Virus record (IMG/VR): IMGVR_UViG_3300032050_000035
Strand: one strand, 5' to 3'
DNA length: 50,148 nucleotides
Origin: a virus
Lineage: Duplodnaviria; Heunggongvirae; Uroviricota; Caudoviricetes
Within the stretch, counting starts at the first letter, position 1. The number at the start of each line of letters is the position of its first letter. Of the stretch, positions 665 through 44,235 are shown piece after piece. The position numbers and the translations under genes were made by a program. The notes below the pieces were generated by a model that was not told where the DNA came from, made no database searches, and saw only the letters and a list, made by a program, of their open reading frames with translations.

Positions 665-1027
665 CTAAATTAGTAAATCTCTTATCAATTTATCTCTCCT
701 TTTGGAAATATATCTACCATACCATTCATCATCTTCAAATTTTATAGTTGATTTTAATGTTAAGTTTATTTTATCTCCCTCAATCTCAATTTCTTTTGAA
801 TATATTTTATAAAATATTCTTTTCATTTTTATACCAAATCTACTTGAAATTTGACTATAATCAAATCTATCAGATTGACTCCAGCGAAAATCACAATCCG
901 GATCAAATTTTTTAGTCAATCGAATTAAAATTTCTACATCATCAATAAATATATCCTTATAAAATATAGGAACTTTATATTTAATATGATAAGTCTTATA
1001 ACTAACTTTATTTACCGTCAACTCCAC
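665..1027 (-). CDS. Hypothetical protein with C-terminal RDKLIRDLL motif
   Basis: 120 aa ORF, last of a minus-strand run; ends KRRDKLIRDLLI. Confidence 0.7.
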   Translation of the reverse strand: MELTVNKVSYKTYHIKYKVPIFYKDIFIDDVEILIRLTKKFDPDCDFRWSQSDRFDYSQISSRFGIKMKRIFYKIYSKEIEIEGDKINLTLKSTIKFEDDEWYGRYISKRRDKLIRDLLI

Positions 1028-1670
1028 TATCTATAGCACTTATTCTTGTTATTATATTCCACAAATCATTTATGTGTTTTCTATAAATGTCCTTTTCAAC
1101 AGGTCTTTGGTTTTCATCATACTTCTCGGCTAATTCTAACTTATGATGTATGATATCTAAGAAGTTATGAACTTTACAACCATTATGTATTGTATAATTT
1201 ATCTTTTCATCAGTTCCAATCAAGTCATAATCACAACTAAAACTATAACCTTTATAAACGCCATATGAATCATAACCTCTATAATTACCAGTATTTACAT
1301 TTATTGATAAAAAGTTTTTTTCATATACAACTTTATTTAAATTAAAAACACCACAAAACGAAATAAAGTTATCTCTACCTATAATAAAATCAAGATCATC
1401 CGGAACTCGACTAAATATATTTTGCCCTTTATATCTATAAGCCCTCAAAGCACTTGAACCAGTTAAAATAGAGTCCAGTTTCAATAAAGTATTTAAATAT
1501 TTTGCTCTCTTTGGATAAAATAATTTTTCAAAGAAATTATTGAAGTGACTAAATGGTAAATCACTTAATGTTATATTATTGTTGTTCTCTAATATTAACT
1601 TAAATTTAAGATCTCTTAAATAAGTTTTAACATCATTTAGTTTTTGTAAATCGCTCATATAAATATCCAA
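1008..1670 (-). CDS. Putative nucleotidyltransferase (Pol-beta superfamily-like)
   Basis: ILTGSSALRAY...RVPDDLDFII fits the hG[GS]...DxD NTase signature. Confidence 0.5.
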   Translation of the reverse strand: MDIYMSDLQKLNDVKTYLRDLKFKLILENNNNITLSDLPFSHFNNFFEKLFYPKRAKYLNTLLKLDSILTGSSALRAYRYKGQNIFSRVPDDLDFIIGRDNFISFCGVFNLNKVVYEKNFLSINVNTGNYRGYDSYGVYKGYSFSCDYDLIGTDEKINYTIHNGCKVHNFLDIIHHKLELAEKYDENQRPVEKDIYRKHINDLWNIITRISAIDSGVDGK

Positions 1671-2370
1671 TTATTATCCCAGTTAAAGCACCCGCAACGT
1701 GGGCTATATGTCCAATTCCATCTTTTTGGTGTCCTAATGAAATTATAAATTCATCTACAATAAAATAAAGTGGTATTAAAAAAGTCGGAAAGTTTATTTT
1801 ACCAATTTTATTGGTTATTTTCATTCCAACAAAAATACCCATTAGTCCATAAATAGAAGAAGAAGCTCCTGCTACAGTGGCTGTTAGTAAACCATCAAGA
1901 TATATTTGTAAAAAACCACCAATCGAACCACATATTAAATAAAAGATAATGAATTGTAAAGATTTCATTCTTCTTTCAATTGGTGGGCCAACTAAAAGTA
2001 ATACACACATATTATTTCTTAAATGTTCGGTACTGGCATGTATAAATTGATGTGTTATTAGTTTATCAAATGAAAACGAACCTAAACTCATTAGAAGTGG
2101 TTGAATTATTTGTGATGGTAGTAATAACTCACAATTAAATATAAAAAAGTTCATAGCAACTAAACCAATTACTATTGGAGTTATTGATCTTATACTTTTA
2201 TCGAAATTATCTACTTTTTTAGAAGTAAAGACAAATAGTGATGCGATAACAGGTGTTAATAACAAACTGATAAAGTATGTTATATTATAGCCTATCTTTC
2301 TCTTTTCACCTTCAAAACTTAATCTAACACAAAGAATTGAGTATAGAAAGGCTAATGTAAGTAAAATCAT
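1633..2370 (-). CDS. Rhomboid family intramembrane serine protease
   Basis: Multiple TM segments; HQFIHASTEHLRNNM (HxxxxHxxxN), GASS catalytic Ser, AHVAGALTG catalytic His. Confidence 0.88.
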   Translation of the reverse strand: MILLTLAFLYSILCVRLSFEGEKRKIGYNITYFISLLLTPVIASLFVFTSKKVDNFDKSIRSITPIVIGLVAMNFFIFNCELLLPSQIIQPLLMSLGSFSFDKLITHQFIHASTEHLRNNMCVLLLVGPPIERRMKSLQFIIFYLICGSIGGFLQIYLDGLLTATVAGASSSIYGLMGIFVGMKITNKIGKINFPTFLIPLYFIVDEFIISLGHQKDGIGHIAHVAGALTGIIIGYLYERFTKTK

Positions 2371-2534
2371 AAACCTCTTTCTCTATTATCAATAACTATT
2401 CTCATACAACCATGACAAACAACAACTGGTCCAGCTGGAGTCATAACTGGTTCTCTCTCACATTTAGATTCACACGGTTTTGTACCTTGTGGTGCGTAAT
2501 CTCTCAAAGATCTTCTTTTTTCTCTTTCTCTCAT
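2367..2534 (-). CDS. Small Cys-rich protein (55 aa), not in the ORF track
   Basis: My translation MREREKRRSLRDYAPQGTKPCESKCEREPVMTPAGPVVVCHGCMRIVIDNRERGL; TGA overlaps the rhomboid ATG (ATGA); promoter-like motif upstream. Confidence 0.65.
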   Translation of the reverse strand: MREREKRRSLRDYAPQGTKPCESKCEREPVMTPAGPVVVCHGCMRIVIDNRERGL

Positions 2535-2553
2535 GACTATAAGTTTTATTTTA

Positions 2554-2561
2554 CAAATATA
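2554..2561 (-). promoter_or_regulatory. Bacteroidota-type sigma-A -7 element (TATATTTG)
   Basis: Matches TAnnTTTG about 20 nt upstream of the 2534 start. Confidence 0.5.
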
Positions 2562-2599
2562 CGAATTTAATATATACGATAGAAAAAAAATATAATAAT

Positions 2600-3022
2600 A
2601 TGAAATACTTAAAGAAGTTTAATGAGAGTTTTGGTAGAACATTATTTGAGGACTTTGGTTCTAAAGACATTATTGATGATATAAAGAGTATATCATACAT
2701 ATTAGAAGATAAAGGATATGAATTAGGTGTTTATGAGTTTTCTCTTCATACGAATTGGGAAGATGTAATAACTATTAAAATAGAACTTTGGACTGAACAA
2801 TATGTAACTGGAGTTGGTGCTTTTACTGATAGCAGTCATGAAAATCTTATGAAAAAAGTGGAGTCTGATATTGATAACTACAAAACTCTTCTAATGGAAC
2901 ATTTAGACTATATACCATCAGATAAATTTCATGTAGGTAAAATAACTCATAGAATTGGGTCTCAAGTTTCATTTTCTAAAGAGAGTGTTCGTTTTGAATG
3001 TAAAATAAAAATAGATTTGTAA
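2600..3022 (+). CDS. Hypothetical protein with MKYLKKFNE leader
   Basis: 140 aa ORF; shares DIKSISYILEDKGY and EHLDYIPSD blocks with ORF 21373..22215. Confidence 0.8.
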   Translation: MKYLKKFNESFGRTLFEDFGSKDIIDDIKSISYILEDKGYELGVYEFSLHTNWEDVITIKIELWTEQYVTGVGAFTDSSHENLMKKVESDIDNYKTLLMEHLDYIPSDKFHVGKITHRIGSQVSFSKESVRFECKIKIDL

Positions 3023-3657
3023 TGAAAAATATTAAAACATATGAAGGTTTCTTTGACTTTTTTAAAAAGAAAAATAAAGAAGTAAGTAACGAACCTGTTT
3101 ATTTAGATGATATAAAAGAATGTCTTTATGATATAACAGAAGATACTAGATTTGATAATTCCTTAGATGGTACAATTGATGGAGTCTTCAACACTTATCG
3201 TGATGTTTTTAAAATTAAGAGTAATCTAAGTTTAGATTCTGATTATGAACAATTGGGTAATGATATAGAAGGATTACCTGAATATGTTAAAGATAATATG
3301 ATGGCTGTTAGAATTAGATATAAGAGAGAAGAAGAAGATGATAGATATTCGGGAGTAGATAAAGTTGGTGTATTAGATGATGATTTTAAGAGATTATTGG
3401 AAATTTGTGAATCCAAATTAAAAACATATAATTGTGAAGTTTCTTATTATGTTTGTATTGGTAATACACACTTAGTGAATGGTGCTAGTTGTATTCCGGA
3501 TGAGTTTAAATCAATTGATAAGTTATTTTATTTTTTACAAAATAGGAGAGAAATTTTAGGATCAGCTCGTCGTGATTCATCCGGTACTACATTTTTCATT
3601 CGAGGATCAATAAACTTAACTATGAAAATAACATCACCTTCAAAAATAATAGTATAA
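3022..3657 (+). CDS. Hypothetical protein with MKNIKTYEGFF leader; paralog of 3660..4178
   Basis: Shared EPVYLxDIKECLYDITED, KDNMxAVR, KRLLEICxSKLxTYxC, MKITxPSKIIV. Confidence 0.85.
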   Translation: MKNIKTYEGFFDFFKKKNKEVSNEPVYLDDIKECLYDITEDTRFDNSLDGTIDGVFNTYRDVFKIKSNLSLDSDYEQLGNDIEGLPEYVKDNMMAVRIRYKREEEDDRYSGVDKVGVLDDDFKRLLEICESKLKTYNCEVSYYVCIGNTHLVNGASCIPDEFKSIDKLFYFLQNRREILGSARRDSSGTTFFIRGSINLTMKITSPSKIIV

Positions 3658-3659
3658 AT

Positions 3660-4178
3660 ATGAAAAATATAAAAACATATGAAGGTTTCTTTGACTTCTT
3701 AAAAAAGAAAAAAAATTTAGAACCGGTGTATTTAGAGGATATAAAAGAATGTCTTTATGATATAACAGAAGATGAACCAAGAATTAAAAACTCTTTAGAT
3801 GGAAATGTTGATGGTATATTTAAAAGTTATGATGAGATATTTGGTATTAAAAATGGAAGAAGTATTGAATATTATGGGTCAATGGATCATATTAAAGATA
3901 ATATGATAGCGGTTAGACTTACTTATAATCTAAATGAAATTAGTAATGAAGAAGTTAAAAGATTATTAGAAATATGTTCTTCTAAATTAAGAACATATGA
4001 TTGTGTAGCAACTTTTTATTTATCATATGGTAGAGATGAAGGTAGAACAGATGATAAAGAATATAAATCAGTTGATAAATTATTCAATGCAATAAATAAA
4101 TATTACAGCTGGTCTGTTAGACAAAGAAATCCTAATATCGCAATGAAAATAACAGCACCTTCAAAAATAATAGTATAG
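3660..4178 (+). CDS. Hypothetical protein with MKNIKTYEGFF leader; paralog of 3022..3657
   Basis: Same conserved blocks as the upstream ORF; tandem arrangement. Confidence 0.85.
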   Translation: MKNIKTYEGFFDFLKKKKNLEPVYLEDIKECLYDITEDEPRIKNSLDGNVDGIFKSYDEIFGIKNGRSIEYYGSMDHIKDNMIAVRLTYNLNEISNEEVKRLLEICSSKLRTYDCVATFYLSYGRDEGRTDDKEYKSVDKLFNAINKYYSWSVRQRNPNIAMKITAPSKIIV

Positions 4179-4210: not shown

Positions 4211-4711
4211 ATGTATTTAAATAAAGATAGAAAAAATTGTACTCTATATTTTGTTAAATCAAACGATATAAATGATTTGATAAAAAGTAATAGTTTGGGG
4301 AGTGTGTATGATTTAGAGATTTTAAAAAGTGATTCAGATAGCATTAAATATGGTAGAGTTGAAACGCAGATAGTAGGTGCTCTTAGATATACAACCGATG
4401 AAGATATTAGTAGTTTTATCGAGAAAAGTGATATAATAGTTGAAGTAATTAAGAATAAAAGTAGTTATTCTTCTTTTCATTTAGAACCATCTTCTTCGAC
4501 AGAAGTTAGAATAATAATGTATGAACTTTTAAACTTTAGTGAGATAAAAGAATTTGAAAATATTGGTAGTATTGAAAGAAGACTTATAACAACAATTGAA
4601 ATTGAAATAAAACCAATAAAAGTAGTTGAAACGGAATCAAATAATATTTTAAGAGATATAAAGTCTTTAATACGTGATAATAAATTGGATAACTTATTAG
4701 GAAATTCCTAA
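4211..4711 (+). CDS. Hypothetical protein with C-terminal RDNKLDNLL motif
   Basis: 166 aa ORF ending SLIRDNKLDNLLGNS. Confidence 0.75.
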   Translation: MYLNKDRKNCTLYFVKSNDINDLIKSNSLGSVYDLEILKSDSDSIKYGRVETQIVGALRYTTDEDISSFIEKSDIIVEVIKNKSSYSSFHLEPSSSTEVRIIMYELLNFSEIKEFENIGSIERRLITTIEIEIKPIKVVETESNNILRDIKSLIRDNKLDNLLGNS

Positions 4712-5062
4712 ATTATTAAGTTTTTCGTCTCTTTCAGCAGATTTTAATAGATTTTCTATTTCAGAATCTTCAACACTAAGAAATTTTTTAAATGATTTTA
4801 TATTAGATATATTAACTACGAATTCATTTTCCCAAAAATCTTCTTCGTTATCAGGTCTTATAATATTTAAGGCTAAGCCTAATCTAGCTTTGTTAGCTCC
4901 ATATTGAACACCCCAATTTAAAATTGATAAAGTATTTACTTCACTACTTATAAACTTTTTAAAATCGGAAAAGTCTTTCATATACCAAGTCATTGGATGT
5001 ACGTTTAGAACCTCTCTAATACCGACAGTTCTTGATAATATGTTCAAAGATATGATTATCAT
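4697..5062 (-). CDS. Hypothetical protein with C-terminal RDEKLNNL motif
   Basis: 121 aa ORF ending SAERDEKLNNLGIS. Confidence 0.75.
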   Translation of the reverse strand: MIIISLNILSRTVGIREVLNVHPMTWYMKDFSDFKKFISSEVNTLSILNWGVQYGANKARLGLALNIIRPDNEEDFWENEFVVNISNIKSFKKFLSVEDSEIENLLKSAERDEKLNNLGIS

Positions 5063-5063: not shown

Positions 5064-5429
5064 TTATATTATTTTATCTATATTAAAATTTCTTAATATG
5101 GCTTTTAATTCAGATACACTTTCTTGTATCTTTTCTGATTTAGTTATTCTACTAATATCTTGTTGTTTTTCAAACTCAGATTTAGCAAATCTCTCAGTTA
5201 AAACTTTTTTGTTATATTTAAACCATTCTTTTTGTAGAGTATTCGGCATACTACATATTTCAACTAGTTTATCCATAGTTTCAATTATATAGTAGTAGTT
5301 GTTATCTAATTCGAAAATTATATTACACTTTCTAACTATTGTATGATGTTCCCATGTATCGGAATAAGATACAATTCTCATTCCTTCTACTAAAAAACCA
5401 CCAGCTCCATTTTCGCCAATTAGTCCCAT
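5064..5429 (-). CDS. Hypothetical protein with C-terminal RNFNIDKII motif
   Basis: 121 aa ORF abutting the topoisomerase stop codon. Confidence 0.75.
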   Translation of the reverse strand: MGLIGENGAGGFLVEGMRIVSYSDTWEHHTIVRKCNIIFELDNNYYYIIETMDKLVEICSMPNTLQKEWFKYNKKVLTERFAKSEFEKQQDISRITKSEKIQESVSELKAILRNFNIDKII

Positions 5430-6824: not shown

Positions 6825-7691
6825 ATGAAAAGAGTTAAAAATTATAACGAGTTTGTTAATGAAGGTATCTTCTTTAAGAAAGATGAATACTTGAGAGCTG
6901 AGTTAAATAAATTATATAATACTGATGAGAATAAAGTTAGATTACAAGAAATCATTAGTACTTTCAAGAATTTAAATAAATTACAATTAATTCATAAATT
7001 AAAAAGTTTAGGTTATTCAGAATATTTAATCGATGACAAGAAACTTTATAAAGAGTTTGAAAAGTTTAAAAAAACTGGTGAACCATTTGGTTTAGAAAAG
7101 TTATTATTAGGTGATGAGATACAAAGACAAATTGTTCTTTCCAAAAGAGGTCAGTTAAGTAGATACTTAATGGAACATGGTGAAGAATTCACTTTTGGTA
7201 TGTTAAGAGCTATTTTCAAAGATGCTAAAGACGCTAAAATCTTAATGGATACTAAAACAGCTTTTTATCAAGCACTTCCAAGAGCTATTCCTACAATCAT
7301 AGCACCTTTTTATCCAATTTTAGCAATTGTTGGTTTGGTTTTAGGAACATCCAGAACATTTAATAAGTTTTTGAAACCACTTTTTAAACATATTGATTCG
7401 GAATCTAAATATGTTGATTTCTTAAAGACGATGGTTAATTACTATATGAAAGTTCCGGAAGGTGATGTAAATGTAAAAGATCGTTTTTCGAGAGCTTTTG
7501 TTGTTACTGATAGATTAATAGATGCTGTTAAACCAGAAGTTATACAAGATTTTACAAATAAATTAATTATAAAAATGGATTCTGAACCGGATGATAAGCC
7601 GGTGCCAGATCACTATATTGAAAATCAATTGAAGACTTATCTGAATGATAATTTTGATGTTGATCCAGAAATACCATTAAAAATAGAATAA
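6825..7691 (+). CDS. Hypothetical protein with MKRVKNYNEFVNE leader and one hydrophobic segment
   Basis: 288 aa ORF; IPTIIAPFYPILAIVGLVLG hydrophobic stretch. Confidence 0.8.
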   Translation: MKRVKNYNEFVNEGIFFKKDEYLRAELNKLYNTDENKVRLQEIISTFKNLNKLQLIHKLKSLGYSEYLIDDKKLYKEFEKFKKTGEPFGLEKLLLGDEIQRQIVLSKRGQLSRYLMEHGEEFTFGMLRAIFKDAKDAKILMDTKTAFYQALPRAIPTIIAPFYPILAIVGLVLGTSRTFNKFLKPLFKHIDSESKYVDFLKTMVNYYMKVPEGDVNVKDRFSRAFVVTDRLIDAVKPEVIQDFTNKLIIKMDSEPDDKPVPDHYIENQLKTYLNDNFDVDPEIPLKIE

Positions 7692-8065: not shown

Positions 8066-9898
8066 ATGTCAGCTGATAAATATAAAAAATTAACAGATAG
8101 AGAACACGTACTACTTAGACCATCTATGTATTTGGGTTCGATGAAACCAAATATTTCAAATAAATGGGTTTTTGAAGATGGTAAAATATTAAAGAAAGAA
8201 ATTAATAATGTCCCGGCTTTTATAAAGTTATTTGATGAAATAATCACCAATTCCATAGATGAGAGTCGTAGAGATGGTAGTAGATTAAATGTTATTAAAA
8301 TAAATATAGATAATGATATTGTAACCGTTTGGGATAACGGGGGAATATCTGTTGTAAAAAATAAAGATGATGAGTGGATTCCAGAGATGGTATTCTCTAA
8401 TATGCGAGCAGGTTCTAATTTTTCAGATGATGAGAATAGAACTTGGGCAGGTACTAATGGTGTTGGGAGTTCTTGTGTGAATATATTTTCAGAAGAATTT
8501 AGAATATCAACTTGTGATGGTAAAAACCATTTTACTCAAGTTTTCTCTAAAAATATGAGTGAGAGATCTAATCCTATTATTAAGAAATCAAAAGCAAATC
8601 ATACTGAAATAACTTATAAACCAGATTATGAAAGATTTGGTTTAAATGGTATTGATGACGATCATTTTAAAATGATTGAGAAAAGAGTTTATGATTTAGC
8701 TGCCTGTAACACACATTTAAAAATATATTTTAATGACTTATTGCTAAATTTTAATACATTTGAAGATTATATTAAGTTATATACGAGTGAATACTTCTAT
8801 GAAAGTAATAAAGATAAAACATGGTCTATCGCAGTTGCACTTTCAGAAAACGGATTTCAACAAGTTAGTTTTGCTAACTCTACGGAGACTTATGATGGTG
8901 GTACACACGTTGACTACATAATGGGTCAGATAATCTCACAGATGAGAGAATTCTTCTTGAAAAAACACAAAGTTGATATTAAACCATCTGAGTTGAAAAA
9001 TCATATGACACTTTTCTTAAACTCAACCGTTATCAATCCTAGTTTCTCATCACAAACAAAAGAGAAATTAATTACTGAGGTTAAAGAATTTGGTTCTACA
9101 TTTGAAGTATCAACTAAGTTTATACAACAAATACTTAAATCCGAAATTGTAAACTCTATTTTAGATTGGATTCAACAAAAAAAGAATGCTGATGATAATA
9201 AATTACAAAGAGAGTTAAATAAAAAACTATCTAAGATTAAAGTGGATAAACTAATTGATGCTAAAGGTAAAGATAGATGGAAATGTTCATTGGCTCTTTT
9301 CGAGGGAGACTCTGCTTCTGGTGCTTTTAGAAAGTATAGAACTCCTGAAACAATGGGTGCTTTCTCATTAAGAGGTAAGTTTATAAATGTTTCTGAAATA
9401 TCTAATCAAAAATTAGTTCAGAATACAGAGGCTGTTAACTTAATGGCGGCAATTGGTTTGAAATTAGGTCAGAATATAGAACTTAAAACATTAAGATATG
9501 GTAGAGTATTGATTTACACTGATGCTGATGTTGATGGTAATTCGATATCTGGATTATTGATAAACTTTTTCTACAAGTATTGGCCTGATATGTTCGAAAG
9601 AAGAATGATTTATAAGGTTGAAACTCCGATAGTAGTAGCAACACCTAAAGATAAAAAGAAAAAGAAAGCTCTTTTCTATACTCAAAGTGAGTACAATGAT
9701 TGGGAATCTAAAACAGACTTAAAAGGTTGGGATGTTAGTTATAAAAAAGGTTTAGCAGCTTTGGTTGATGATGAGTATGGTGACATCATTAATAATCCAA
9801 AGTTAACACTTATAACTAAAGATGATGTCTCTGAAACTTCATTAGATGTTTGGTTTGGTAAGAATTCGGATTTAAGAAAGACTGAGTTATTAAAATGA
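8066..9898 (+). CDS. Type IIA DNA topoisomerase, ATPase/TOPRIM subunit (T4 gp39+gp60-like, GyrB/ParE homolog)
   Basis: REHVLLRPSMYLGS, DEIITNSID, DNG, GTNGVG (GHKL ATPase); FEGDSA, LRGK, TDADVDG (TOPRIM). Confidence 0.95.
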   Translation: MSADKYKKLTDREHVLLRPSMYLGSMKPNISNKWVFEDGKILKKEINNVPAFIKLFDEIITNSIDESRRDGSRLNVIKINIDNDIVTVWDNGGISVVKNKDDEWIPEMVFSNMRAGSNFSDDENRTWAGTNGVGSSCVNIFSEEFRISTCDGKNHFTQVFSKNMSERSNPIIKKSKANHTEITYKPDYERFGLNGIDDDHFKMIEKRVYDLAACNTHLKIYFNDLLLNFNTFEDYIKLYTSEYFYESNKDKTWSIAVALSENGFQQVSFANSTETYDGGTHVDYIMGQIISQMREFFLKKHKVDIKPSELKNHMTLFLNSTVINPSFSSQTKEKLITEVKEFGSTFEVSTKFIQQILKSEIVNSILDWIQQKKNADDNKLQRELNKKLSKIKVDKLIDAKGKDRWKCSLALFEGDSASGAFRKYRTPETMGAFSLRGKFINVSEISNQKLVQNTEAVNLMAAIGLKLGQNIELKTLRYGRVLIYTDADVDGNSISGLLINFFYKYWPDMFERRMIYKVETPIVVATPKDKKKKKALFYTQSEYNDWESKTDLKGWDVSYKKGLAALVDDEYGDIINNPKLTLITKDDVSETSLDVWFGKNSDLRKTELLK

Positions 9899-10278
9899 TG
9901 GAAGTTTTATTATATGGAGATTTCGGATATGAAATACTTTACATAAAATCACCAATTAGAGCAATTTATGATACAGTTGGTGATAATCACATGATAACTA
10001 TCGAAAAGTCATCTTTAAAATCAAATAGTTTGATAGAACTATCTAATGGATATTTGATTATTCGATATAATCAATATGATAGACTTGGTAATATCATAAG
10101 GTCTGTCATTTTTAATATAGTTGATTTTGGTGAAAATGATCTTAATTACTTTTTCAAATTCTCAAAAATAAAAGATGTGTATTTTGATAGAAAAGAATCT
10201 AAAAAAGATTTAATTGATTTGGATAATTACATCAAATCTTATATAAGAGATTATAGATTAGATGAGATATTTGATTAA
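9895..10278 (+). CDS. Hypothetical protein with C-terminal RDYRLDEIF motif
   Basis: 127 aa ORF with ATGA overlap to the topoisomerase stop. Confidence 0.75.
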   Translation: MMEVLLYGDFGYEILYIKSPIRAIYDTVGDNHMITIEKSSLKSNSLIELSNGYLIIRYNQYDRLGNIIRSVIFNIVDFGENDLNYFFKFSKIKDVYFDRKESKKDLIDLDNYIKSYIRDYRLDEIFD

Positions 10279-11744: not shown

Positions 11745-11774
11745 AAAAAAACCCTCAATTAAGAGGGTTTTTTT
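11745..11774. terminator. Bidirectional intrinsic terminator
   Basis: AAAAAAACCCTC-AATTAA-GAGGGTTTTTTT between convergent genes. Confidence 0.85.
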
Positions 11775-12756
11775 ATTTAAAGAAATCTTTTATTTTATCA
11801 AGTTGTTTATTTAAAATTTGATCATTAACACAATCAATTATATATCTTAATGTTTCTTCTCTTGAATCGTCCATTTCACTTCTATCTTGTTCATCTATAA
11901 TAAATTGAAGTCTAAGAAACTTATCTAGTGGTAATTGTTGGCATTCATAATCAACACATTTTGATGATGCTTGTAGCATAACCGTTGAAATAGGAACAGC
12001 CCAATTTAAAGCTCCCCACTTTTTAATTGGTCGGTGCCACCATTTTCTTCTATACCCTAACTTTTCGGAATGGAATCCGGTTCCTAATGAAAGTAATTGA
12101 ATATCCTCAACAGTTATATCTGGGTTTCCATATTTATATCTAAGTGTATCCGCAACAGCTGCCATGGCTGGATTGTTAATATAAATACCACCATCAACTA
12201 AAATTCTATCAACATCGTTATAGTTATATTCGAATGGTGATAAATATACAGGAGCCGCACTTGTTGCTCTACAAACATCTTTTAGTGGTAGATCAAATCC
12301 ATACTCATTAGTTCTTCTACTTTTAAACATAACAATTTCATTATGTATTATATCATATGATGTGACAATTATTGGTTTAAGAACTTCTGATAGTCTTATA
12401 TCACCAAAGTATTCAGATAATTGATCTTCTAAACCATTCTTTTTATATTTTGGTAAAAAAATTGATCTTATTCCTCTATATTTCTTTTTTAACCAAGTGT
12501 TTTGTTTTGGGAATATTTTATTACCATTGGTGTTGTAAAGATCTATTAGTTTATCAACTGTTAATACTGGTTTTCCATTTTTTGCCGCGGTTAATCCACA
12601 TGCTATTATACCACCAGTTGATGTACCAACTATCAAATCAAATAGTTCATAAATTCTTTTACCAGTTATATCTTCAATTCTCTTCAGAATAATTAATTCT
12701 GCTAATCCTCTCAAGCCTCCACCATCTAAGGATAAAATTTTAAACTTCTTTTTCAT
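11773..12756 (-). CDS. Patatin-like phospholipase
   Basis: LSLDGGGLRG (oxyanion), GTSTG (nucleophile GxSxG), ATSAAP, DGG (catalytic Asp). Confidence 0.93.
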   Translation of the reverse strand: MKKKFKILSLDGGGLRGLAELIILKRIEDITGKRIYELFDLIVGTSTGGIIACGLTAAKNGKPVLTVDKLIDLYNTNGNKIFPKQNTWLKKKYRGIRSIFLPKYKKNGLEDQLSEYFGDIRLSEVLKPIIVTSYDIIHNEIVMFKSRRTNEYGFDLPLKDVCRATSAAPVYLSPFEYNYNDVDRILVDGGIYINNPAMAAVADTLRYKYGNPDITVEDIQLLSLGTGFHSEKLGYRRKWWHRPIKKWGALNWAVPISTVMLQASSKCVDYECQQLPLDKFLRLQFIIDEQDRSEMDDSREETLRYIIDCVNDQILNKQLDKIKDFFK

Positions 12757-12809: not shown

Positions 12810-13124
12810 ATGAGAGATCGTGCTTGGAGAAGATCAACTTATGAGAAAGTCACACTCAGAAGATTGAGAGAAAATTTGTATAAATCTTGGTGGTATTATA
12901 AAGATGCCAATGGGTATTATATACAAAATGCGGTCTTGCCTGATTATATAGGAACTGAGTATCATCGTAGTAAGAGATATATCGGTAACTATGGTAAAGA
13001 TAAATATTCTCCAAATAAAAGTAATAGAAGAAAAAGTTTTCCAAGACCTGGAGATACACCAAATACAAGAGAATGGAATAAGAGATATCTATTAAAAATA
13101 TTAAAAGAAAATGGAATTAAGTGA
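12810..13124 (+). CDS. Small basic hypothetical protein
   Basis: 104 aa Arg/Lys-rich ORF coupled to the next ORF. Confidence 0.7.
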   Translation: MRDRAWRRSTYEKVTLRRLRENLYKSWWYYKDANGYYIQNAVLPDYIGTEYHRSKRYIGNYGKDKYSPNKSNRRKSFPRPGDTPNTREWNKRYLLKILKENGIK

Positions 13125-13659
13125 TTTAATACCAAGAAAACCAGGATATTCTATAAGTGGAGATATTCTACATTTTAAGAAATTGATCAATATACCTATT
13201 TGTTATATTGATACTTATGATGTTGCTTATGTTTTCTTAGATATGAGAATAAAGAAAGAAGTAATTAGATTTGTTCAACATTTAATGAAAATTGGAATTG
13301 AATTTTATTTTGCTTATCCAGATAGTGCTAATCCATCGGGTGTTTTAAACTATAAGGAGAAAGTAATCTATCACTATTTAATTATCTATTTAGGTATCTT
13401 TGAACACGAAAGTAATGATAGAAGTTTATATCTTGGTTTAGAAAGAGTAGGTCTTGATTATTTTAAAAACTTAGTTAATTGGTGTTTAAAAGAAGATTGT
13501 TTACCAGTTTTGAAAAAGATTTACGATGAATTAAAACCAAAAGTTGAAGCTAATTTTTACGATTGGTATTCAAAAGATAAAAGATATAATTATACTGATG
13601 AAGTTAGAGAAGATTATAAAACACTTTGGAGAGAAATACAACTTAATATGATATTATAA
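13111..13659 (+). CDS. Hypothetical protein with C-terminal REIQLNMIL motif
   Basis: 182 aa ORF ending TLWREIQLNMIL immediately before a terminator. Confidence 0.75.
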   Translation: MELSDLIPRKPGYSISGDILHFKKLINIPICYIDTYDVAYVFLDMRIKKEVIRFVQHLMKIGIEFYFAYPDSANPSGVLNYKEKVIYHYLIIYLGIFEHESNDRSLYLGLERVGLDYFKNLVNWCLKEDCLPVLKKIYDELKPKVEANFYDWYSKDKRYNYTDEVREDYKTLWREIQLNMIL

Positions 13660-14298: not shown

Positions 14299-15270
14299 AT
14301 GTTAGTAGATTTAATTATTGATGGTAACTATATTTTAAGTCGTTTAGTTTTTACTTTACACAAAAATAATTTACTTTATGGTGCTTTACACCAATCATTA
14401 GAAAACACAATAAGAAATTACAGAAAATGGTTTCCTTTTGCGAACGTTTATTTAGTTTCTGACTCTAAAGAAAAATCTTGGAGAAAACAAATTATAAGTG
14501 AATATAAAGCCACTAGAAAAAAAGATTCAGATATAGATTGGAATTTTGTTTATCAAACATATGGAGAATTTAAAGAAGAGATTAAATCAATCTCTAAAAT
14601 TTTAGAAGCACCTCACGTAGAAGGTGATGACTGGATTTCTTTTTTAGTTGAAAAGGCAAACTCAGAAGGTCGTTCAACTGTGATTGTATCAAATGACTAT
14701 GATATTAAACAGATAGTTAATTTTGGTGTTGATCCTTTATACATTAATATTATGACTAATGAAATGTATAATAAAGAAAAACTTTTCTTACCTAAAAACT
14801 ATCAAATATTTTTAAACAAGTTATCTAAATTACCAAATGATGATATTTTTGATCTAAATGATAATAGTGAGTTTATTGGACTTTTGAATAGATTTCTTAA
14901 TAAATATGAGATTAATGAAATTAACTCAACAGAATCATTAATTATTAAGATTATATCAGGTGATACATCTGATAATATTGAATCTGTTTGGTCACAAGTT
15001 AAAAATGGTAAGAAAAGAGGAATTGGTGCGAAAGGCGCGAAAACTATTTATGATCAGTATATATCAGAGTTTGGTGAAGTAAATTTAAAAGATCCAGATT
15101 TATATGAGAATATAGCGGACTTAATTTGTGAGAAAAAGAAATTAAGTAAAACTAAAATTGAAGATATAGTTGATAATATTAAAAGTAATATGAAACTAAT
15201 TGATCTTAGAATAAATAACTTACCAACAGATATTGTTGATAAAATGTATAATGTTTATGATAAAATTTGA
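14299..15270 (+). CDS. 5'-3' exonuclease / T4-like RNase H (FEN/PIN fold)
   Basis: LIIDGNY, SWRKQIISEYKATRK, VEGDDWI, VSNDYDIKQ, GDTSDNI, NMKLIDL. Confidence 0.85.
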   Translation: MLVDLIIDGNYILSRLVFTLHKNNLLYGALHQSLENTIRNYRKWFPFANVYLVSDSKEKSWRKQIISEYKATRKKDSDIDWNFVYQTYGEFKEEIKSISKILEAPHVEGDDWISFLVEKANSEGRSTVIVSNDYDIKQIVNFGVDPLYINIMTNEMYNKEKLFLPKNYQIFLNKLSKLPNDDIFDLNDNSEFIGLLNRFLNKYEINEINSTESLIIKIISGDTSDNIESVWSQVKNGKKRGIGAKGAKTIYDQYISEFGEVNLKDPDLYENIADLICEKKKLSKTKIEDIVDNIKSNMKLIDLRINNLPTDIVDKMYNVYDKI

Positions 15271-15754
15271 TTTTGATAAAGCTATTTCAAAATGGTCTCC
15301 TGTAATAGAGAATACCATAATGAAACACAAATATACTTATTGTAGAGATTTAATTGAATCAATAAGTATATTTTGTGAATGGTTTTCTCGGAATGAAGAT
15401 CAAAAAATTAATCAATATAATCAATATGCCAGTACTTGTACTACATTAGGTCAGATACCTAATGGTACACCGGGTAGTGGTGATTATGAAAATCCATTAC
15501 CAGGTAAGCTTAAAGATATTTATGAAAAATTAAAATCAATTGATCTTAGAGTTGAAATAGTTGGTGAGTATTTGAATATGGCAACTGGACAAGTTGAATA
15601 TAAATTAGCTGATGGTAGGTATATACCAAAAGATTTTAAAAACTTTAAACCATCAGAGGATATTTATTTACAAGTTTTCGATCATGATTTCCTAACTTTT
15701 TGGAAACCGGATATTATAAGAGATTGGAAACTTAATAATATTTTAAATGGCTGA
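15233..15754 (+). CDS. Hypothetical protein with C-terminal RDWKLNNIL motif
   Basis: ORF between the exonuclease and the next gene; likely start ATG 15257. Confidence 0.7.
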   Translation: MLIKCIMFMIKFDFDKAISKWSPVIENTIMKHKYTYCRDLIESISIFCEWFSRNEDQKINQYNQYASTCTTLGQIPNGTPGSGDYENPLPGKLKDIYEKLKSIDLRVEIVGEYLNMATGQVEYKLADGRYIPKDFKNFKPSEDIYLQVFDHDFLTFWKPDIIRDWKLNNILNG

Positions 15755-16711: not shown

Positions 16712-17052
16712 TTATAAAGAAATTTTTCATATTTTTCTTCATCTTTTAAATTAATTTCCATTACAGTTTCTTTTAATGGTGTTGTGAAAGTTACTATAAC
16801 ATAAGTTAGGTAATCTGTTTCAACACCATTTAATAATTCATCTAATAAAATATCTCTTTCGGAATCTTTATCTAATCTTTCACCAGTATCAATCCTTAAA
16901 TTAATTTTCCAAGGTAATCTTTTATTAACATAACTAATAACAGATGTTTTGTAAACATTTGGCTGTCTCATTTGTCTTTTAAATAAGAATAAAGAAAATA
17001 TTACTATTCTAGTTATGTATTGGTGATAAACTTGATTAACATCTAATTTCAT
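16708..17052 (-). CDS. Hypothetical protein
   Basis: 114 aa ORF; internal SERDILLDELL resembles the C-terminal motif family. Confidence 0.65.
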   Translation of the reverse strand: MKLDVNQVYHQYITRIVIFSLFLFKRQMRQPNVYKTSVISYVNKRLPWKINLRIDTGERLDKDSERDILLDELLNGVETDYLTYVIVTFTTPLKETVMEINLKDEEKYEKFLYN

Positions 17053-18845: not shown

Positions 18846-19712
18846 ATGATTTCATACATGGGAGCCAAAGGCGGCGCAATGGGTAAGTGGATTGAAGAAT
18901 TTATACCAAAAGATATAAAAATATTTTCAGAACCATTTAGTGGTATGTTTAACGTATATTTAACAATGGATTTAGATAAATATACAAACTTAGAAAAAGT
19001 AATTTATAATGATTTTAATGTATTAAATGCCAATATATTTGCATGTGCTAGAAATTATAAAAAATTTTATTCATATTTAGAAAAACAAGAATGTCAACAA
19101 AAAAGAATTGATAACTCTCCAACAGATTCAAAATTTAAGGAATGGTTTAATCAGTATCAAAAAGAGATATTTACTAATCAACCAAAATTAGATATGGATA
19201 ATCCAGATTATGAGAGTGCTGTTAAATACTCGTATGTATTATCCCAAGTTTTTTCGGGTTCTAAACCAGAAACTAGTTCATTTATAGATTTAAAAGGTAA
19301 GTATAATTGTAAGTTTGAATCATTCAGAAAAAAAATGAATGGTACTAACCACGGAAAAAGTATATTAAAACATCTTGATGGTATTACAAATGTTGAAAGT
19401 ATGGACTTTGAAGATTTGATGTTAAAATATGATAGTCCAGAAACTTATTTTTATTTAGATCCTCCGTATTATAACTGTGAAACATATTATAGCAATCATG
19501 AATTTGGGTTGCAAACACATAAGAGGTTAGCTGATTGTATTAAAAAGTTAAAGGCTAAATGGTCTCTATCTTATTACTACTTCCCAGAATTAGAAGAGTG
19601 GTTTCCAAAAGATAAGTACCGCTGGGAAGAAAAAGAATTTAATAAAATATCAGGTGCTAAAAAAGGTCAAGAAACCAAAAAGGGTACTGAACTTTTAATT
19701 ATGAATTACTAA
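18846..19712 (+). CDS. DNA adenine methyltransferase (Dam/D12 class)
   Basis: SYMGAKG, EPFSG (motif I), YNDFN, FYLDPPYY (motif IV), ELLIMNY. Confidence 0.92.
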   Translation: MISYMGAKGGAMGKWIEEFIPKDIKIFSEPFSGMFNVYLTMDLDKYTNLEKVIYNDFNVLNANIFACARNYKKFYSYLEKQECQQKRIDNSPTDSKFKEWFNQYQKEIFTNQPKLDMDNPDYESAVKYSYVLSQVFSGSKPETSSFIDLKGKYNCKFESFRKKMNGTNHGKSILKHLDGITNVESMDFEDLMLKYDSPETYFYLDPPYYNCETYYSNHEFGLQTHKRLADCIKKLKAKWSLSYYYFPELEEWFPKDKYRWEEKEFNKISGAKKGQETKKGTELLIMNY

Positions 19713-19906
19713 TGAGTTATCAAATTGATAGTGATGGATTTGTAATATACAAAGGTGTTAAGTTGAGTTTAACGGTTGAACAGTTAAGTGATACTCGAAT
19801 AATAACTGGTATATCAAGTGAAAAGTTGATTGAATATCAATACAAAAGAGAGATTGTTGAGATAAGAGATAAGAAGATAGATGAAATAATAAAACCACTC
19901 GATTGA
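19712..19906 (+). CDS. Small hypothetical protein with C-terminal RDKKIDEII motif
   Basis: 64 aa ORF with TAATG coupling to the methylase. Confidence 0.7.
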   Translation: MSYQIDSDGFVIYKGVKLSLTVEQLSDTRIITGISSEKLIEYQYKREIVEIRDKKIDEIIKPLD

Positions 19907-33637: not shown

Positions 33638-34729
33638 TTATTGTTCTGGTGTAATTATTTTATCAATTTCAGCTACTTTATCTTTGTTTTCTTCTTTACT
33701 TATGAAATCAACATAACTAGCAACTTTCTTAATATCATCTGGTTTTTTAGCTTTCAACTCACCTAATTTTTTAACTAAGTCTTCTTGTCCTTGAGCTTTA
33801 GCCTCTTCAAATTTATAAGAGTCAACTTCTTCACCTTTTTCGTTAACAATTCTTTCTAAGGCTCCAGTTTCGTATTCTTTCATCGGATCTGGTTGACCTT
33901 TTCTTAAAATCTCGGTTAATTTAACTTTGTCTCCTTTTTTAACTTCACCAGCAATTTTTGCTAAAACTTCTTCTCCTTCATCGACTACTAATTTTTTACT
34001 ACCAGATTTAACAACTTGTATATATCCTGGATGTTTAGTTAATAAATCACCTGTTAATTTCTTAATTTCAATTTCAACATCACCCCAATCTAAAACAATG
34101 TTACCACCTTCAGATTCTTCACCACCTTCAATTTTCTTTTCTTCTTTATATTTTTTGATTTGTTCATCAATATACTTGTCATCAGTAACTTTCTTTTTGA
34201 AGTCATCAACAATTGCTTTAATCTCAGCTACACGAGCAGCTTTCTTACCAGCTAAATCTTTAGCCGCTGCCACTTTTTTATCAAACTCCATTTTAAGTTC
34301 TGCCGCTTTTTGTTTAACCATACCTAACATTACACGACCAGCAATCATACCATCTTTGATAGCACCTTCGAGAATTAAATTAACATTAGACTCTTTAACA
34401 GCTTGAATTTCTTTATCAATCTCAACACATTTTTCGTCAAATTCTTTATGAAATTGATCTATTATTTGATTAAGTATTCCTTCGTCTTCAGCTTTGTTTA
34501 TATTGTCTGTTGTGGTTTTTAAAAGACTATCCAACATAGTAGTTAGTTTTTTCTTTAACTCTTCTCTTTTTAATCCTTTTTTGAAATCATCTTTTAGTGA
34601 TTTAAAAGGAGCTGCTATACCACTTAAAAAGTTTTTAAATGCTCCTTTAGCAGCCGCTAATAAAGAACCTAAAAACTCCTCATTTATTTGACTATCTTTA
34701 AATTGTTGATAATTGTTAATTCTCTTCAT
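33638..34729 (-). CDS. Lys/Glu/Ala-rich coiled-coil protein with MKRINNYQQF...INEE leader (putative virion protein)
   Basis: 363 aa ORF; ATATATA motif upstream. Confidence 0.8.
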   Translation of the reverse strand: MKRINNYQQFKDSQINEEFLGSLLAAAKGAFKNFLSGIAAPFKSLKDDFKKGLKREELKKKLTTMLDSLLKTTTDNINKAEDEGILNQIIDQFHKEFDEKCVEIDKEIQAVKESNVNLILEGAIKDGMIAGRVMLGMVKQKAAELKMEFDKKVAAAKDLAGKKAARVAEIKAIVDDFKKKVTDDKYIDEQIKKYKEEKKIEGGEESEGGNIVLDWGDVEIEIKKLTGDLLTKHPGYIQVVKSGSKKLVVDEGEEVLAKIAGEVKKGDKVKLTEILRKGQPDPMKEYETGALERIVNEKGEEVDSYKFEEAKAQGQEDLVKKLGELKAKKPDDIKKVASYVDFISKEENKDKVAEIDKIITPEQ

Positions 34730-34792: not shown

Positions 34793-35257
34793 ATGAGTAA
34801 TTATTTAAAAGATGTATCAGAGTTTCATAAAACATTTGGAGCACCAATCTTAGATACACCACAAATACCATCTAAAGAAAGATGTGAGTTAAGAGTATCT
34901 TTATTACAAGAAGAACTAAATGAATTAAAAGAAGCAATTGAGAAAGGAGATGTAGTTGAGGTTGCTGACGCACTTGCTGATATTCAGTATGTTCTTTCTG
35001 GAGCTGTTTTAGAGTTTGGGTTAGGTGAAAAATTTGATACTTTATTTGATGAAGTACAAAGAAGTAATATGAGTAAGGCTTGTACATCTCAACAAGAAGC
35101 AATTGAAACATTACTACATTATAAACAAAAGGATGGTACTGAAGGTTTCTATAAAGAAGTTGATGGAAAATGGTTAGTTTATAGAACTGTTGATAACAAA
35201 GTTCTTAAATCTATTAACTACTCACCAGCAAACCTTTCTGATATAATTAATGGATAA
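34793..35257 (+). CDS. MazG-like / all-alpha NTP pyrophosphohydrolase
   Basis: LLQEELNELKEA...VEVADALADIQYV...FDEVQRSNMSK. Confidence 0.88.
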   Translation: MSNYLKDVSEFHKTFGAPILDTPQIPSKERCELRVSLLQEELNELKEAIEKGDVVEVADALADIQYVLSGAVLEFGLGEKFDTLFDEVQRSNMSKACTSQQEAIETLLHYKQKDGTEGFYKEVDGKWLVYRTVDNKVLKSINYSPANLSDIING

Positions 35258-35612
35258 AATTAATGGATATGTTATTCAAAAACTTAGAAATAAGTTAGAA
35301 ATAATTAAAGAACACGGTCAAGAATTGGATAATATAGATGAATTGATACAAAAAATAATTTATAATGAAGACTCAACTTATGGATTTAATGGATGGGGAA
35401 CTTATGAGGTTATTTGGACCACGGACTATAAAAATCCAATTGCAATAAATAAAATGAGTGATGATTGTGTTATAGAAGAAACTAATTCTGGTTATATAGT
35501 AAAAGACCATCTTAAATTCACAAAAATGTTATTTTGGTCACAGATAATTAGATTTGATATAGAAGAATGGAGAGAAGAAAGACTCAATTTAATATTAAAT
35601 GAGAAAGTTTGA
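35250..35612 (+). CDS. Hypothetical protein with C-terminal REERLNLIL motif
   Basis: 120 aa ORF coupled to its neighbours. Confidence 0.75.
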   Translation: MDKINGYVIQKLRNKLEIIKEHGQELDNIDELIQKIIYNEDSTYGFNGWGTYEVIWTTDYKNPIAINKMSDDCVIEETNSGYIVKDHLKFTKMLFWSQIIRFDIEEWREERLNLILNEKV

Positions 35613-35871
35613 TTATAAAAATCTTTTGGAGAGAGAGGCATTTGAATTAGGTGATTATTATGTTACTGGTTTAGATAGATTTAATGAGGGTGATATAGTT
35701 AAGATATATCAACATACTTATGTTAGATTATTAACATTTGATAAAAATGATGAACTATATGTAGTTCATCAAAATCAAATACATAAAAACTTTATAACAA
35801 AAAAACATTGGAGGGATGAGCAAATTAATAGAATTATTGAAAAAGATGACAACAAAGAAACCGGTAATTAA
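35599..35871 (+). CDS. Hypothetical protein with C-terminal RDEQINRII motif
   Basis: 90 aa ORF. Confidence 0.72.
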   Translation: MRKFDYKNLLEREAFELGDYYVTGLDRFNEGDIVKIYQHTYVRLLTFDKNDELYVVHQNQIHKNFITKKHWRDEQINRIIEKDDNKETGN

Positions 35872-36181
35872 TAAGTCTAAAATTGAAAAAGAATTCAAGT
35901 CTTTTAAAAATAAGTTTCATGGTCAAAATAAGATATGGTTTGATGCTCTCCCGGAAAAAAAACAATTAGATCTTCTTTATGATTGGAAAGAGTATAAATG
36001 GGCTAATAAGAATAACATAAGACGCACCAAAATTATTTCTAATGGATATTCAACAGTTAAAATCAAATCTTATCCTCCAAGTTTTAAGTATTTTATAATT
36101 GGTTGTAAGTCAACTTGGAAGTATAGAGTTAAAAAAGAAGATATGAGAGATAAAACAATTGATTTCTTACTCGGTAGATAA
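35816..36181 (+). CDS. Hypothetical protein with C-terminal RDKTIDFLL motif
   Basis: Basic ORF; the true start is probably an internal ATG (MTTKK). Confidence 0.7.
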   Translation: MSKLIELLKKMTTKKPVINKSKIEKEFKSFKNKFHGQNKIWFDALPEKKQLDLLYDWKEYKWANKNNIRRTKIISNGYSTVKIKSYPPSFKYFIIGCKSTWKYRVKKEDMRDKTIDFLLGR

Positions 36182-42538: not shown

Positions 42539-42567
42539 AAAAAACCAGTCAATGACTGGTTTTTTTT
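42537..42567. terminator. Bidirectional intrinsic terminator
   Basis: AAAAAAAACCAGTC-AAT-GACTGGTTTTTTTT. Confidence 0.85.
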
Positions 42568-43267
42568 ATTTATAATCTAATTTATTTTTTTTTATATTTC
42601 TATTTATATACCCACATAAAGGTTGTAAATTTGTATAGTGATTTAGCTTTATAATCTGTTCTTCGTTTTCACCACTAGATATTGGTGTAATATGATCTAT
42701 ATCCCAACCGTAATTTAATTCACCATTATATAAACCATAATTATCCCAAGTCATCCAATTTTCGAATTTGGATTCTATATAAAGTCTAAACTCACTTATC
42801 GAGCATCCTAAAATTTCATTCGTCTTTGAAGTTTTTTTATATCCTTTGTATTTAATTGAATTTTTTATTAAACATTTTATATTACATTGAAATTTGTAGA
42901 TATTATCATTTTTAATTCTATTAAGATGATAATTAGATGAATATTTTATTAATTTTTCTCTATTTGTATTATAATAGTTCTTTTTATATTCTTTATATTT
43001 ATCTTTATTACTATCTCTATATTCTTTACTTCTTTTTAGAACATCTTCTCTATTATCAACATAATACTTTCTTTTTCGATTCTTCTCATTTATTATATCA
43101 TCTTCTGTATATACTCTATTTTTATATAAATCACTTTCTCTCCACTTTTTTGTAGATTTATTTCTACACTCTTTACAAACACCATGGTATCCGTCTTTTG
43201 AATCTTTTCTTTTTCCAAAATCCGTTATCAATTTATTTGATTTACATCTGCTACAAAACTTTTCCAT
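42566..43267 (-). CDS. HNH endonuclease (same family as 18048..18827)
   Basis: FCSRC...VCKEC, WDNYG...WDIDHITP...NHYTNLQPL. Confidence 0.85.
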   Translation of the reverse strand: MEKFCSRCKSNKLITDFGKRKDSKDGYHGVCKECRNKSTKKWRESDLYKNRVYTEDDIINEKNRKRKYYVDNREDVLKRSKEYRDSNKDKYKEYKKNYYNTNREKLIKYSSNYHLNRIKNDNIYKFQCNIKCLIKNSIKYKGYKKTSKTNEILGCSISEFRLYIESKFENWMTWDNYGLYNGELNYGWDIDHITPISSGENEEQIIKLNHYTNLQPLCGYINRNIKKNKLDYK

Positions 43268-43342
43268 GTTATATATATTATTTAATAAAAATGGAAATTT
43301 GACGGAAGCTCAACTTATTTATAATTATTTCATATAATTGAT

Positions 43343-43528
43343 ATGAATGAGGATGATTTAAAATATAAAACACCTGAAAAGATAGAAGAATATCATAAAG
43401 TTATTCAGAAATTAAAAGAAGCTCATGATATTTTTAGTAAGTGTCTTGATGGTAAAAATCGTAGAGGTATCTTAACTGATATCTCAAATACGATTTATAG
43501 AATAAAAAGAGAATATCTAAATGATTAA
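43343..43528 (+). CDS. Small hypothetical protein
   Basis: 61 aa ORF overlapping the DHFR start. Confidence 0.65.
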   Translation: MNEDDLKYKTPEKIEEYHKVIQKLKEAHDIFSKCLDGKNRRGILTDISNTIYRIKREYLND

Positions 43529-43988
43529 GATTATTGTAGCAATGTCAAGAAATAGGGTTATTGGTAATGCCAATACCCTAATCTGGCATTTACCAGAAGA
43601 TTTAAAAAGATTTAAAGAATTAACTACCGGTAACACAATAGTAATGGGTAGAAAAACTTACGAATCAATTGGAAGACCTTTGCCTAATAGAAGAAGTATT
43701 ATCATAACAAGAGATACTAACTATCAAGTAGAAGGTTGTGAAGTTGTAAACTCTTTAGAAGAAGCTTTACTTTTATCAAATAATGATTGCTTTATTATAG
43801 GTGGTGGTGAGATTTATAGACAAGCTTTAGATAAAGCTGATAGAATATACTTAACACTTATAGAAAAAAACTTTGAAGGTGATACAACATTTCCTGAAAT
43901 AAAAGATTGGTACGAATCAAACTGTGAGAATTTCAGTAATGAGCAGTTTAACTATTCATTTATACAATATGAGAGATTCGCATTTTAA
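43521..43988 (+). CDS. folA: Dihydrofolate reductase
   Basis: VIGNANTLIWHLPEDLKRFK, VMGRKTYESIGRPLPNR, IIGGGEIY, FEGDTTFP. Confidence 0.96.
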   Translation: MIKIIVAMSRNRVIGNANTLIWHLPEDLKRFKELTTGNTIVMGRKTYESIGRPLPNRRSIIITRDTNYQVEGCEVVNSLEEALLLSNNDCFIIGGGEIYRQALDKADRIYLTLIEKNFEGDTTFPEIKDWYESNCENFSNEQFNYSFIQYERFAF

Positions 43989-44235
43989 TGAGTTTATACT
44001 TTTTATACAATCTATTGGATTTGTCTATGATAAGTATTCTTTCAATAAAGAATATTATTTATTAGATCAGTATGAAATATATGTAACTATTAGTGGAATC
44101 TACTGTTTAACTGAGAAAGTACAACAAGGAGTTACTAGAACACTAACTACTGGTGCTGTTCAACATTTCAAAAATGATTTAAACTCATTTCGAAGTATAG
44201 TTAGAAATAAGAAACTAAAAGATTTGGGAATATGA
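43924..44235 (+). CDS. Hypothetical protein with C-terminal RNKKLKDL motif
   Basis: ORF ending SIVRNKKLKDLGI; the true start is probably the internal MRDSH. Confidence 0.65.
   Translation: MRISVMSSLTIHLYNMRDSHFNEFILFIQSIGFVYDKYSFNKEYYLLDQYEIYVTISGIYCLTEKVQQGVTRTLTTGAVQHFKNDLNSFRSIVRNKKLKDLGI

Follow-up and report, generated by a model that had tools for sequence, protein, structure and literature searches.

The DNA described here is a 50,148-nucleotide stretch from a tailed virus (Caudoviricetes; IMG/VR record IMGVR_UViG_3300032050_000035), hereafter the window, in which twelve proteins end in a similar short peptide, hereafter the C-tag. The window has a G+C content of 27% over 50 kb, and no tRNA genes were found in it. 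Its genes include those for T4-type topoisomerase II subunits, a baseplate wedge protein, RNase H/FEN, Dam, DHFR and FolD. The closest public genomes are LR756502.1 (642 kb) and LR745206.1 (635 kb), whose topoisomerase large subunits are 73% and 72% identical to that of the window; both are among the complete circular "Mahaphage" genomes whose hosts were assigned to Bacteroidetes (Al-Shayeb et al., 2020; PMC7162821). Core genes of the window and LR756502.1 are 60–75% identical, and the whole of LR756502.1 was used as an independent test set.

Tagged genes of the window

The original prediction had listed twelve C-terminal peptides in the window and proposed that they form a docking helix for one common hub. 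All twelve peptides are real, each occurring once, in frame, at the end of an open reading frame (ORF). The positions it gave belong to real ORFs, although each number is the low coordinate of the ORF and not the position of the tag.

The minus-strand ORF 665..826 (53 residues from ATG, up to 120 residues from a GTG at 1027) ends in RRDKLIRDLLI at 668-700(−), scores 7.2 bits against a profile of the tails, and closes a minus-strand unit at whose head, upstream of 2534, stands a host-type promoter box (described below). The ORFs 4211..4711 (+, 166 residues; IRDNKLDNLLG at 4670-4702(+), 14.8 bits) and 4697..5062 (−, 121 residues; ERDEKLNNLGI at 4703-4735(−), 13.0 bits) are convergent and overlap by 15 nucleotides. 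This overlap, 4697-4711, is the near-palindrome TTAGGAAATTCCTAA, whose two strands encode LGNS-stop and LGIS-stop. The topoisomerase II medium subunit gene is directly followed by 5064..5429 (−, 121 residues; LRNFNIDKII at 5067-5096(−)), whose tag is kept in the LR756502.1 ortholog and in most metagenomic homologs, while 9895..10278 (+, 127 residues; IRDYRLDEIFD at 10243-10275(+), 16.6 bits) overlaps the stop of the topoisomerase II large subunit gene. The tag of 13111..13659 (+, 182 residues; WREIQLNMIL at 13627-13656(+), 9.0 bits) is followed by a terminator-like hairpin.

Further along, 15251..15754 (+, 167 residues; IRDWKLNNILN at 15716-15748(+)) overlaps the end of the RNase H/FEN gene. 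Its tag is kept in 15 of 16 aligned homologs, the remaining one being truncated before the tag, and residues 153-166 of its tail are predicted to form a helix. The tag of 19712..19906 (+, 64 residues; IRDKKIDEII at 19862-19891(+)), a gene downstream of the Dam methylase gene, is kept in the LR756502.1 ortholog. Behind a MazG/PRA-PH-like gene stand three consecutive tagged genes: 35250..35612 (+, 120 residues; WREERLNLIL at 35568-35597(+), 9.2 bits), 35599..35871 (+, 90 residues; WRDEQINRII at 35809-35838(+), 12.9 bits, with 10 residues past the core motif) and 35816..36181 (+, 121 residues; MRDKTIDFLL(GR) at 36143-36172(+), 8.1 bits). Finally, 43939..44235 (+, 98 residues from ATG, 103 residues from a GTG at 43924; VRNKKLKDLGI at 44200-44232(+), 14.3 bits) lies downstream of the DHFR gene, its tag again followed by a terminator-like hairpin. 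Altogether, 10 of the 12 tagged genes either follow a topoisomerase II, RNase H, Dam, MazG-like or DHFR gene in the same direction or lie in a host-box unit.

The C-tag is a portable peptide under protein-level selection

The pattern R[DEN]xx[LI]xx[LIF][LIFG] was derived from the list of the original prediction, and a match was called C-terminal when it ended no more than 10 residues from the stop. Among 65 crudely called genes of the window there were 15 matches, of which 12 were C-terminal (Fisher p = 4e-14), and the same pattern matched 175 times in LR756502.1 with 139 matches C-terminal (p = 1e-137). The motif is thus enriched at C-termini over internal positions in both. Furthermore, of 3787 reading frames in LR756502.1 that are 40 codons or longer and are not genes, only 9 ended in it. 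A scan of LR756502.1 with the profile of the tails marked 151 of about 1001 genes (about 15%) as tagged. Tag-like internal copies number about 17 in that genome; in the window, a conserved 114-residue protein (16708-17052(−); 54% identical in LR756502.1) holds the tag-like SERDILLDELLNG at residues 61-75.

The core motif is nine residues long, from the Arg (position 0) to the second hydrophobic pair, and it stands 0–10 residues, usually 0–3, from the stop, so that the tag lies within the last 19 residues of its carriers. The consensus reads (S/D at −3) h-R-[D/N/E]-x-K-[L/I]-[N/D]-x-[L/I]-[L/G]-[I/x]. Conservation also reaches positions that the pattern left free, with K at +3 in 60% of tags, N/D at +5 in 56% and S at −3 in 25%; G stands at +8 in 28% of tags, which typically end in LGI. 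Besides the conserved D/N/E at +1 and N/D at +5 there is a polar residue at +6, and the hydrophobic residues are aliphatic, not aromatic. The residues trailing the core motif vary, and the last residue is not conserved. Upstream of the tag no column exceeded 0.82 bits, and no conserved (L/I)xE was found there.

The tail was predicted to be helical by AlphaFold2 (AF2), in agreement with the original prediction, at low confidence: models of tagged proteins had predicted local distance difference test (pLDDT) values of 58 and 64.5. The original prediction had recognised no named family for the peptide, and a comparison of 10 tagged window proteins with Pfam and PHROGs likewise gave nothing above cut-offs. 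A 17-residue tail profile had no match among PDB sequences at E <= 10, and an ESM Atlas look-up of one tail returned only generic helices. No published description of the tag was found in the literature searched.

Two features of the tagged genes would suit a signal that acts at gene ends in the nucleic acid or during translation (as a promoter, by coupling to the following gene or through the nascent peptide) and not in the finished protein: 71% of them adjoin or overlap their upstream neighbour, and TGA stops are commoner among them (26% vs 15%). However, the conserved positions draw on every synonymous codon, which points to selection on the peptide and not on the DNA. In addition, the downstream context is varied, including convergent genes, terminators, overlaps and 50-nucleotide gaps, and the distance to the stop ranges from 0 to 10 residues. 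We therefore regard such a gene-end signal as extremely improbable. Together with the unrelated bodies and the tags kept in orthologs (next section), these results show that the C-tag is a portable peptide under protein-level selection.

Carriers and distribution of the C-tag

The upstream bodies had been said to share nothing obvious, and this was borne out on a larger scale: the 151 tagged bodies of LR756502.1, with their tails removed, fell into 146 BLAST components. Nor are the carriers one homologous family, as no Pfam or PHROG family is shared among them and different known domains carry the tag. Two known and unrelated folds are tagged in LR756502.1, a Flavokinase (riboflavin-kinase fold) and a BtpA-like domain, and the tag is also found on long proteins, for example one of 622 residues. 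Carriers measure 74–179 residues (10th to 90th percentile) and have an unremarkable isoelectric point. As regards the export machinery among the hubs listed in the original prediction, a membrane-like segment was present in only 8% of the small tagged proteins. The tagged genes cluster in two divergent arrays next to each other on the circular map.

The tag persists where the bodies diverge. Nine of the 12 window carriers lack a homolog even in LR756502.1. The tag was kept in 3 of 3 ortholog pairs between the window and LR756502.1, at a body identity of about 30%, and the tag or a degenerate form of it was kept in 20 of 20 pairs between IMG/VR sequences and LR756502.1; it was also kept in two families of metagenome homologs (A1 and A3). 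In IMG/VR, a DNA-pattern scan revealed tagged arrays on many contigs, which reach 476 kb, and up to 11 of 20 genes were tagged there. Among the untagged genes inside these arrays, no recurrent candidate for a protein that reads the tag was found.

Core-pattern counts were 39 in LR756502.1, 35 in LR745206.1, 3 in LR756504.1 (2 for the reversed pattern, which served as the control and gave 0–2 matches), and 0 in both XacN1 and T4. The tag is clade-specific, since the count in LR756504.1 nearly equals its control and XacN1 and T4 have none. A variant pattern, R-K-x-K-L-x-K-L-N-stop, had no match in any of these five genomes. The bearers of the tag form a subclade of freshwater, Bacteroidota-infecting huge phages related to T4, in which about 15% of proteins have it; in the phage of the window, about one gene in six is tagged.

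Promoter boxes and the N-terminal leader

Expression timing was read from upstream promoter boxes, by transcription unit, in LR756502.1. Two boxes dominate, TAATATATA and TATATTTGT. The first (TAATATATA / AATATATA) stands before the genes for the portal, the candidate prohead protease and the major capsid protein and before the baseplate operon, and is therefore read as probably the late promoter of the clade. It lies about 10 nucleotides before the start codon. About 20% of genes have (T)TAATATATA, with a preceding T, ending only about 5–15 nucleotides ahead of their start codon, a spacing that implies very short or absent leaders. Late-type boxes in the window are upstream of 49822 (the baseplate operon), 47460, 43267, 36248, 23968, 23188 and 2600. 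The second box (TATATTTGT / TATATTTG) matches the Bacteroidota −7 consensus TANNTTTGY (PMC12632263), and from this match we read it as a putative early promoter for the host polymerase. In the window, TATATTTGT(A), often after TTCC and a few bases before the start codon, is upstream of 2534(−), 24030(+), 24497(+) and 44310(+). This box supports a Bacteroidota host and marks the units taken as early.

Tagged genes made up 24–25% of the genes behind the host-type box and 3% of those behind the late box (odds ratio 11, p = 1e-16); their share was 12% behind an intermediate TATATA box and 26% in unassigned units. A strict two-box Bacteroidota promoter pattern is real, with 42% of its matches in the non-coding 6% of the genome, but headed too few units to classify genes.

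A different terminal peptide marks the late units. In LR756502.1, 60 genes encode proteins with the N-terminal leader MK[HY][LI]KxYK[IL]FE, hereafter the N-leader, and 53–55 of them are in late-box units. This leader resembles the T4 capsid targeting sequence (CTS). It usually ends in ...K[IL]FE, which fits an (L/I)xE prohead-protease site. A late box of their own stands directly upstream of 58% of N-leader genes compared to 1 of 151 C-tag genes, and none of the 60 N-leader proteins bears the C-tag (hypergeometric p = 4e-5). The C-tag is thus complementary to the capsid-targeting-like N-leader. In the window, 11 proteins that otherwise differ share the start MK(x)[IL]K(x)[YF](x)(x)F, as in MKNIKTYEGFF and MKYLKKFNES. 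Their genes are 124-663, 2600-3022, 3022-3657, 3660-4178 and 6825-7691 on the plus strand and 19930-21336, 21373-22215, 22226-23188, 23220-23576, 23573-23968 and 33638-34729 on the minus strand.

These data bear on whether the C-tag is a second signal for loading proteins into the capsid or virion, from which the cargo would be injected. Encapsulin cargo-loading peptides are C-terminal and portable and sit on unrelated cargo, as the C-tag does; one of them contains LGI, the typical ending of C-tags with G at +8. Two alternative tags to one destination, moreover, need not co-occur. T4-type phages do load proteins into the head by a portable terminal tag, the CTS of IPI-III and Alt, which likewise is a short peptide on diverse, fast-evolving accessory proteins of which only the tag is conserved (PMC3012670, PMC9026906). 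However, the T4 CTS occupies the first ~10 residues, comes with a prohead-protease site and serves late head assembly, whereas the C-tag is C-terminal, has no conserved (L/I)xE cleavage site before it, avoids late units and never accompanies the CTS-like N-leader of the same genomes. Encapsulin cargo is co-expressed with its HK97-fold shell, while C-tag carriers, judged by promoter-box class, are not expressed with capsid genes, and the tagged genes of the window sit amid genes for replication and nucleotide metabolism. Set against this rarity behind late boxes, a role in capsid loading is improbable. The same avoidance of late transcription units disfavours a virion or assembly scaffold as the hub, a form of the oligomeric scaffold among the options of the original prediction.

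A candidate docking handle

The carriers are small, mostly soluble and fast-evolving, and they are encoded in host-promoter-driven and replication-gene units and not in late or virion units; we therefore read them as pre-replicative proteins of the host-takeover type. The reading to which we give an even chance is that the C-tag is a docking handle on such accessory proteins with one partner in common. Under this proposal, a tag of 10 to 18 residues would form a short amphipathic helix, with a hydrophobic face at positions −1, +4, +7 and +8, to whose sides lie the invariant Arg and the Asp/Asn-Lys pair. The helix would be read in trans by one common partner, a single machine that could thereby dock, gather or hand on many different bodies. 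Early timing, reading in trans, the nature of the partner and the effect of docking are what we infer here. A clade-specific partner encoded by the phage is more likely than a universal hub of the host, because the tag is absent from LR756504.1 (636 kb), a more distant genome that is also assigned to Bacteroidetes. As to what docking would achieve, a scaffold or co-localisation role is possible though doubtful, hand-over to a protease or unfoldase is unlikely, and any other outcome is quite unlikely.

Several points weigh against the docking handle. No partner was identified for the tag, so that of the original prediction the portable C-terminal peptide on unrelated bodies is supported while docking onto a single hub stays a proposal. 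Between 79 and 88 of the 151 tagged genes are in units with no recognised promoter box, which leaves early timing direct for only about a third, and 12–13 tagged genes are downstream inside late-headed units. In the window, 4211..4711 follows three N-leader genes and is the sole tagged gene possibly behind a late-like box. The low-confidence models are compatible both with a free helix and with one packed on the body, and so short a helix could also act intrinsically, by stabilising its protein or by self-association.

This last point leads to the alternative that there is no common reader, the helix being a stabilising cap for newly born small proteins, or a means of weak self- or cross-association, that spreads by making them viable. 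The carriers are indeed small orphans in hyperplastic arrays, and the motif has features of helix capping, namely S/D at −3, D/N at +1 and, at +8, a G with a hydrophobic residue behind it. A complex prediction for two unrelated tagged proteins (families A3 and A1), which addressed tag-to-tag binding, scored 0.27, below threshold, and speaks neither for nor against it. However, a helix that varies elsewhere but holds its Arg invariant and K(+3) and N/D(+5) conserved suggests specific recognition; the long 622-residue carrier and the stable Flavokinase and BtpA-like folds are tagged too, and the strict avoidance of N-leader proteins and late units is hard to obtain from folding alone. We consider an intrinsic helix unlikely.

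Alternatively, the C-tag could be a degradation signal through which a host protease or unfoldase, or one under phage control, clears early proteins at the late switch. Its C-terminal site, its many different substrates, the non-late class of the carriers and its exclusion from proteins destined to persist in the capsid would all suit such a signal. AAA+ protease tails such as the SspB XB tail and the ssrA tag are likewise short C-terminal peptides that link many substrates or adaptors to one machine. These depend on the last residues and a free carboxylate, or on a basic-hydrophobic pentapeptide, whereas the conserved part of the C-tag is a putative helix followed by variable trailing residues. 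With 0–10 such residues and a variable last residue, recognition of a free C-terminus of the ssrA or ClpX type is a poor fit, which also tells against the protease-adaptor option of the original prediction in its ssrA-type form, and metabolic enzymes are tagged as well. On balance, a degradation signal seems rather unlikely.

Clamp-binding tails offer another comparison, as the tails of T4 gp43 and gp55 and the PCNA-interacting peptide (PIP) box are also hydrophobic motifs at the extreme C-terminus by which many clients share one hub. The C-tag has the h-x-x-h-h spacing of PIP boxes, and one window protein ends in IDFLLGR, near the SLDFLFG of T4. However, the consensus differs from both S-L-D-F-L-[F/Y], as read in T4 gp43 and gp55 (NC_000866), and Qxx[LIM]xx[FY][FY], and the tag is polar where clamp tails are hydrophobic. 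The DNA polymerase of LR756502.1 ends instead in VVMDIFGGSGF, a T4-like tail that lacks the Arg/Lys frame of the tag, and 150 competitors for one clamp would be implausible. Searches of LR756502.1 for the clamp itself with PF09116, PF02916 and phmmer/jackhmmer with T4 gp45 found nothing, although a divergent clamp could be missed. Sliding-clamp binding is thus very improbable.

Two more specific candidates were rejected. The phage Hsp20 (13706-14188) as reader has no homolog in LR756502.1, which has 151 tags. Mimicry of the host sigma-A tail (...RSKALKPYLG) comes down to a superficial likeness (R0, L4, L8, G9), and the tail profile had no C-terminal match in six sigma-A tails from five Bacteroidota genomes. 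A membrane-targeting helix of the MinD/FtsA type would likewise be amphipathic and C-terminal, but basic plus hydrophobic and free of conserved acidic residues, so that the conserved D/N/E at +1 and N/D at +5 of the tag tell against it.

By analogy only, poxvirus ankyrin/PRANC proteins and viral F-box-type adaptors also join a variable target-binding body to a constant C-terminal module that enters a shared machine. These use a folded domain and the host ubiquitin system, whereas the C-tag would be a helix of about 10 residues in a bacterial virus. A bolder form of the docking handle, which we hold to be rather doubtful, would make the C-tag a counterpart of the F-box/PRANC systems: two mutually exclusive address peptides would sort a quarter of the proteome, the N-leader sending late proteins to the capsid and the C-terminal helix sending early, rapidly evolving effectors to one phage-encoded machine (for example an unfoldase/protease or a scaffold), which would either dispose of them at a set time or employ them as exchangeable adaptors, bringing host (defence) proteins to be destroyed.

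Source genome and neighbouring genes

The FolD of the phage is nearest to Bacteroidota enzymes, and DNA of the window is present in lake and freshwater metagenomes; no RNA runs were found among the public runs that carry it. Besides MazG-like proteins, the window encodes a rhomboid protease (1633-2370(−)), a patatin-like lipase of the phospholipase type (11773-12756(−)), the Hsp20 named above (minus strand) and a NusG-like protein with a KOW domain (16154-16711(+)); the rhomboid and NusG-like proteins are conserved in LR756502.1. A 576-residue protein (44974-46704(+)) begins with a signal-peptide-like stretch, contains a TPM domain and is rich in Gly/Ser at its C-terminus. In LR756502.1, a family B DNA polymerase match extends across more than one ORF at 120483-123620 (loci L015 and L017), with one TAG and one TAA as internal stops, and the gene may be split or interrupted.

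Implications

New here are the mutual exclusion of C-tag and N-leader, the depletion of tagged genes from late units and the T4-like clamp tail on the polymerase of the relative. Taken together, these make capsid loading and clamp binding unlikely as functions of the C-tag. If one partner reads the tag, about 150 orphan proteins in each genome, and thousands in the clade as a whole, would gain a common functional handle, and once the hub had a name, a large part of the viral dark matter would fall into a single pathway. Being short, portable and phage-specific, such a docking peptide could find use as an engineering part too. Furthermore, the separation of the C-tag from the capsid-targeting leader would let one tell from the sequence of an uncultured giant phage which effectors are injected and which are made early.

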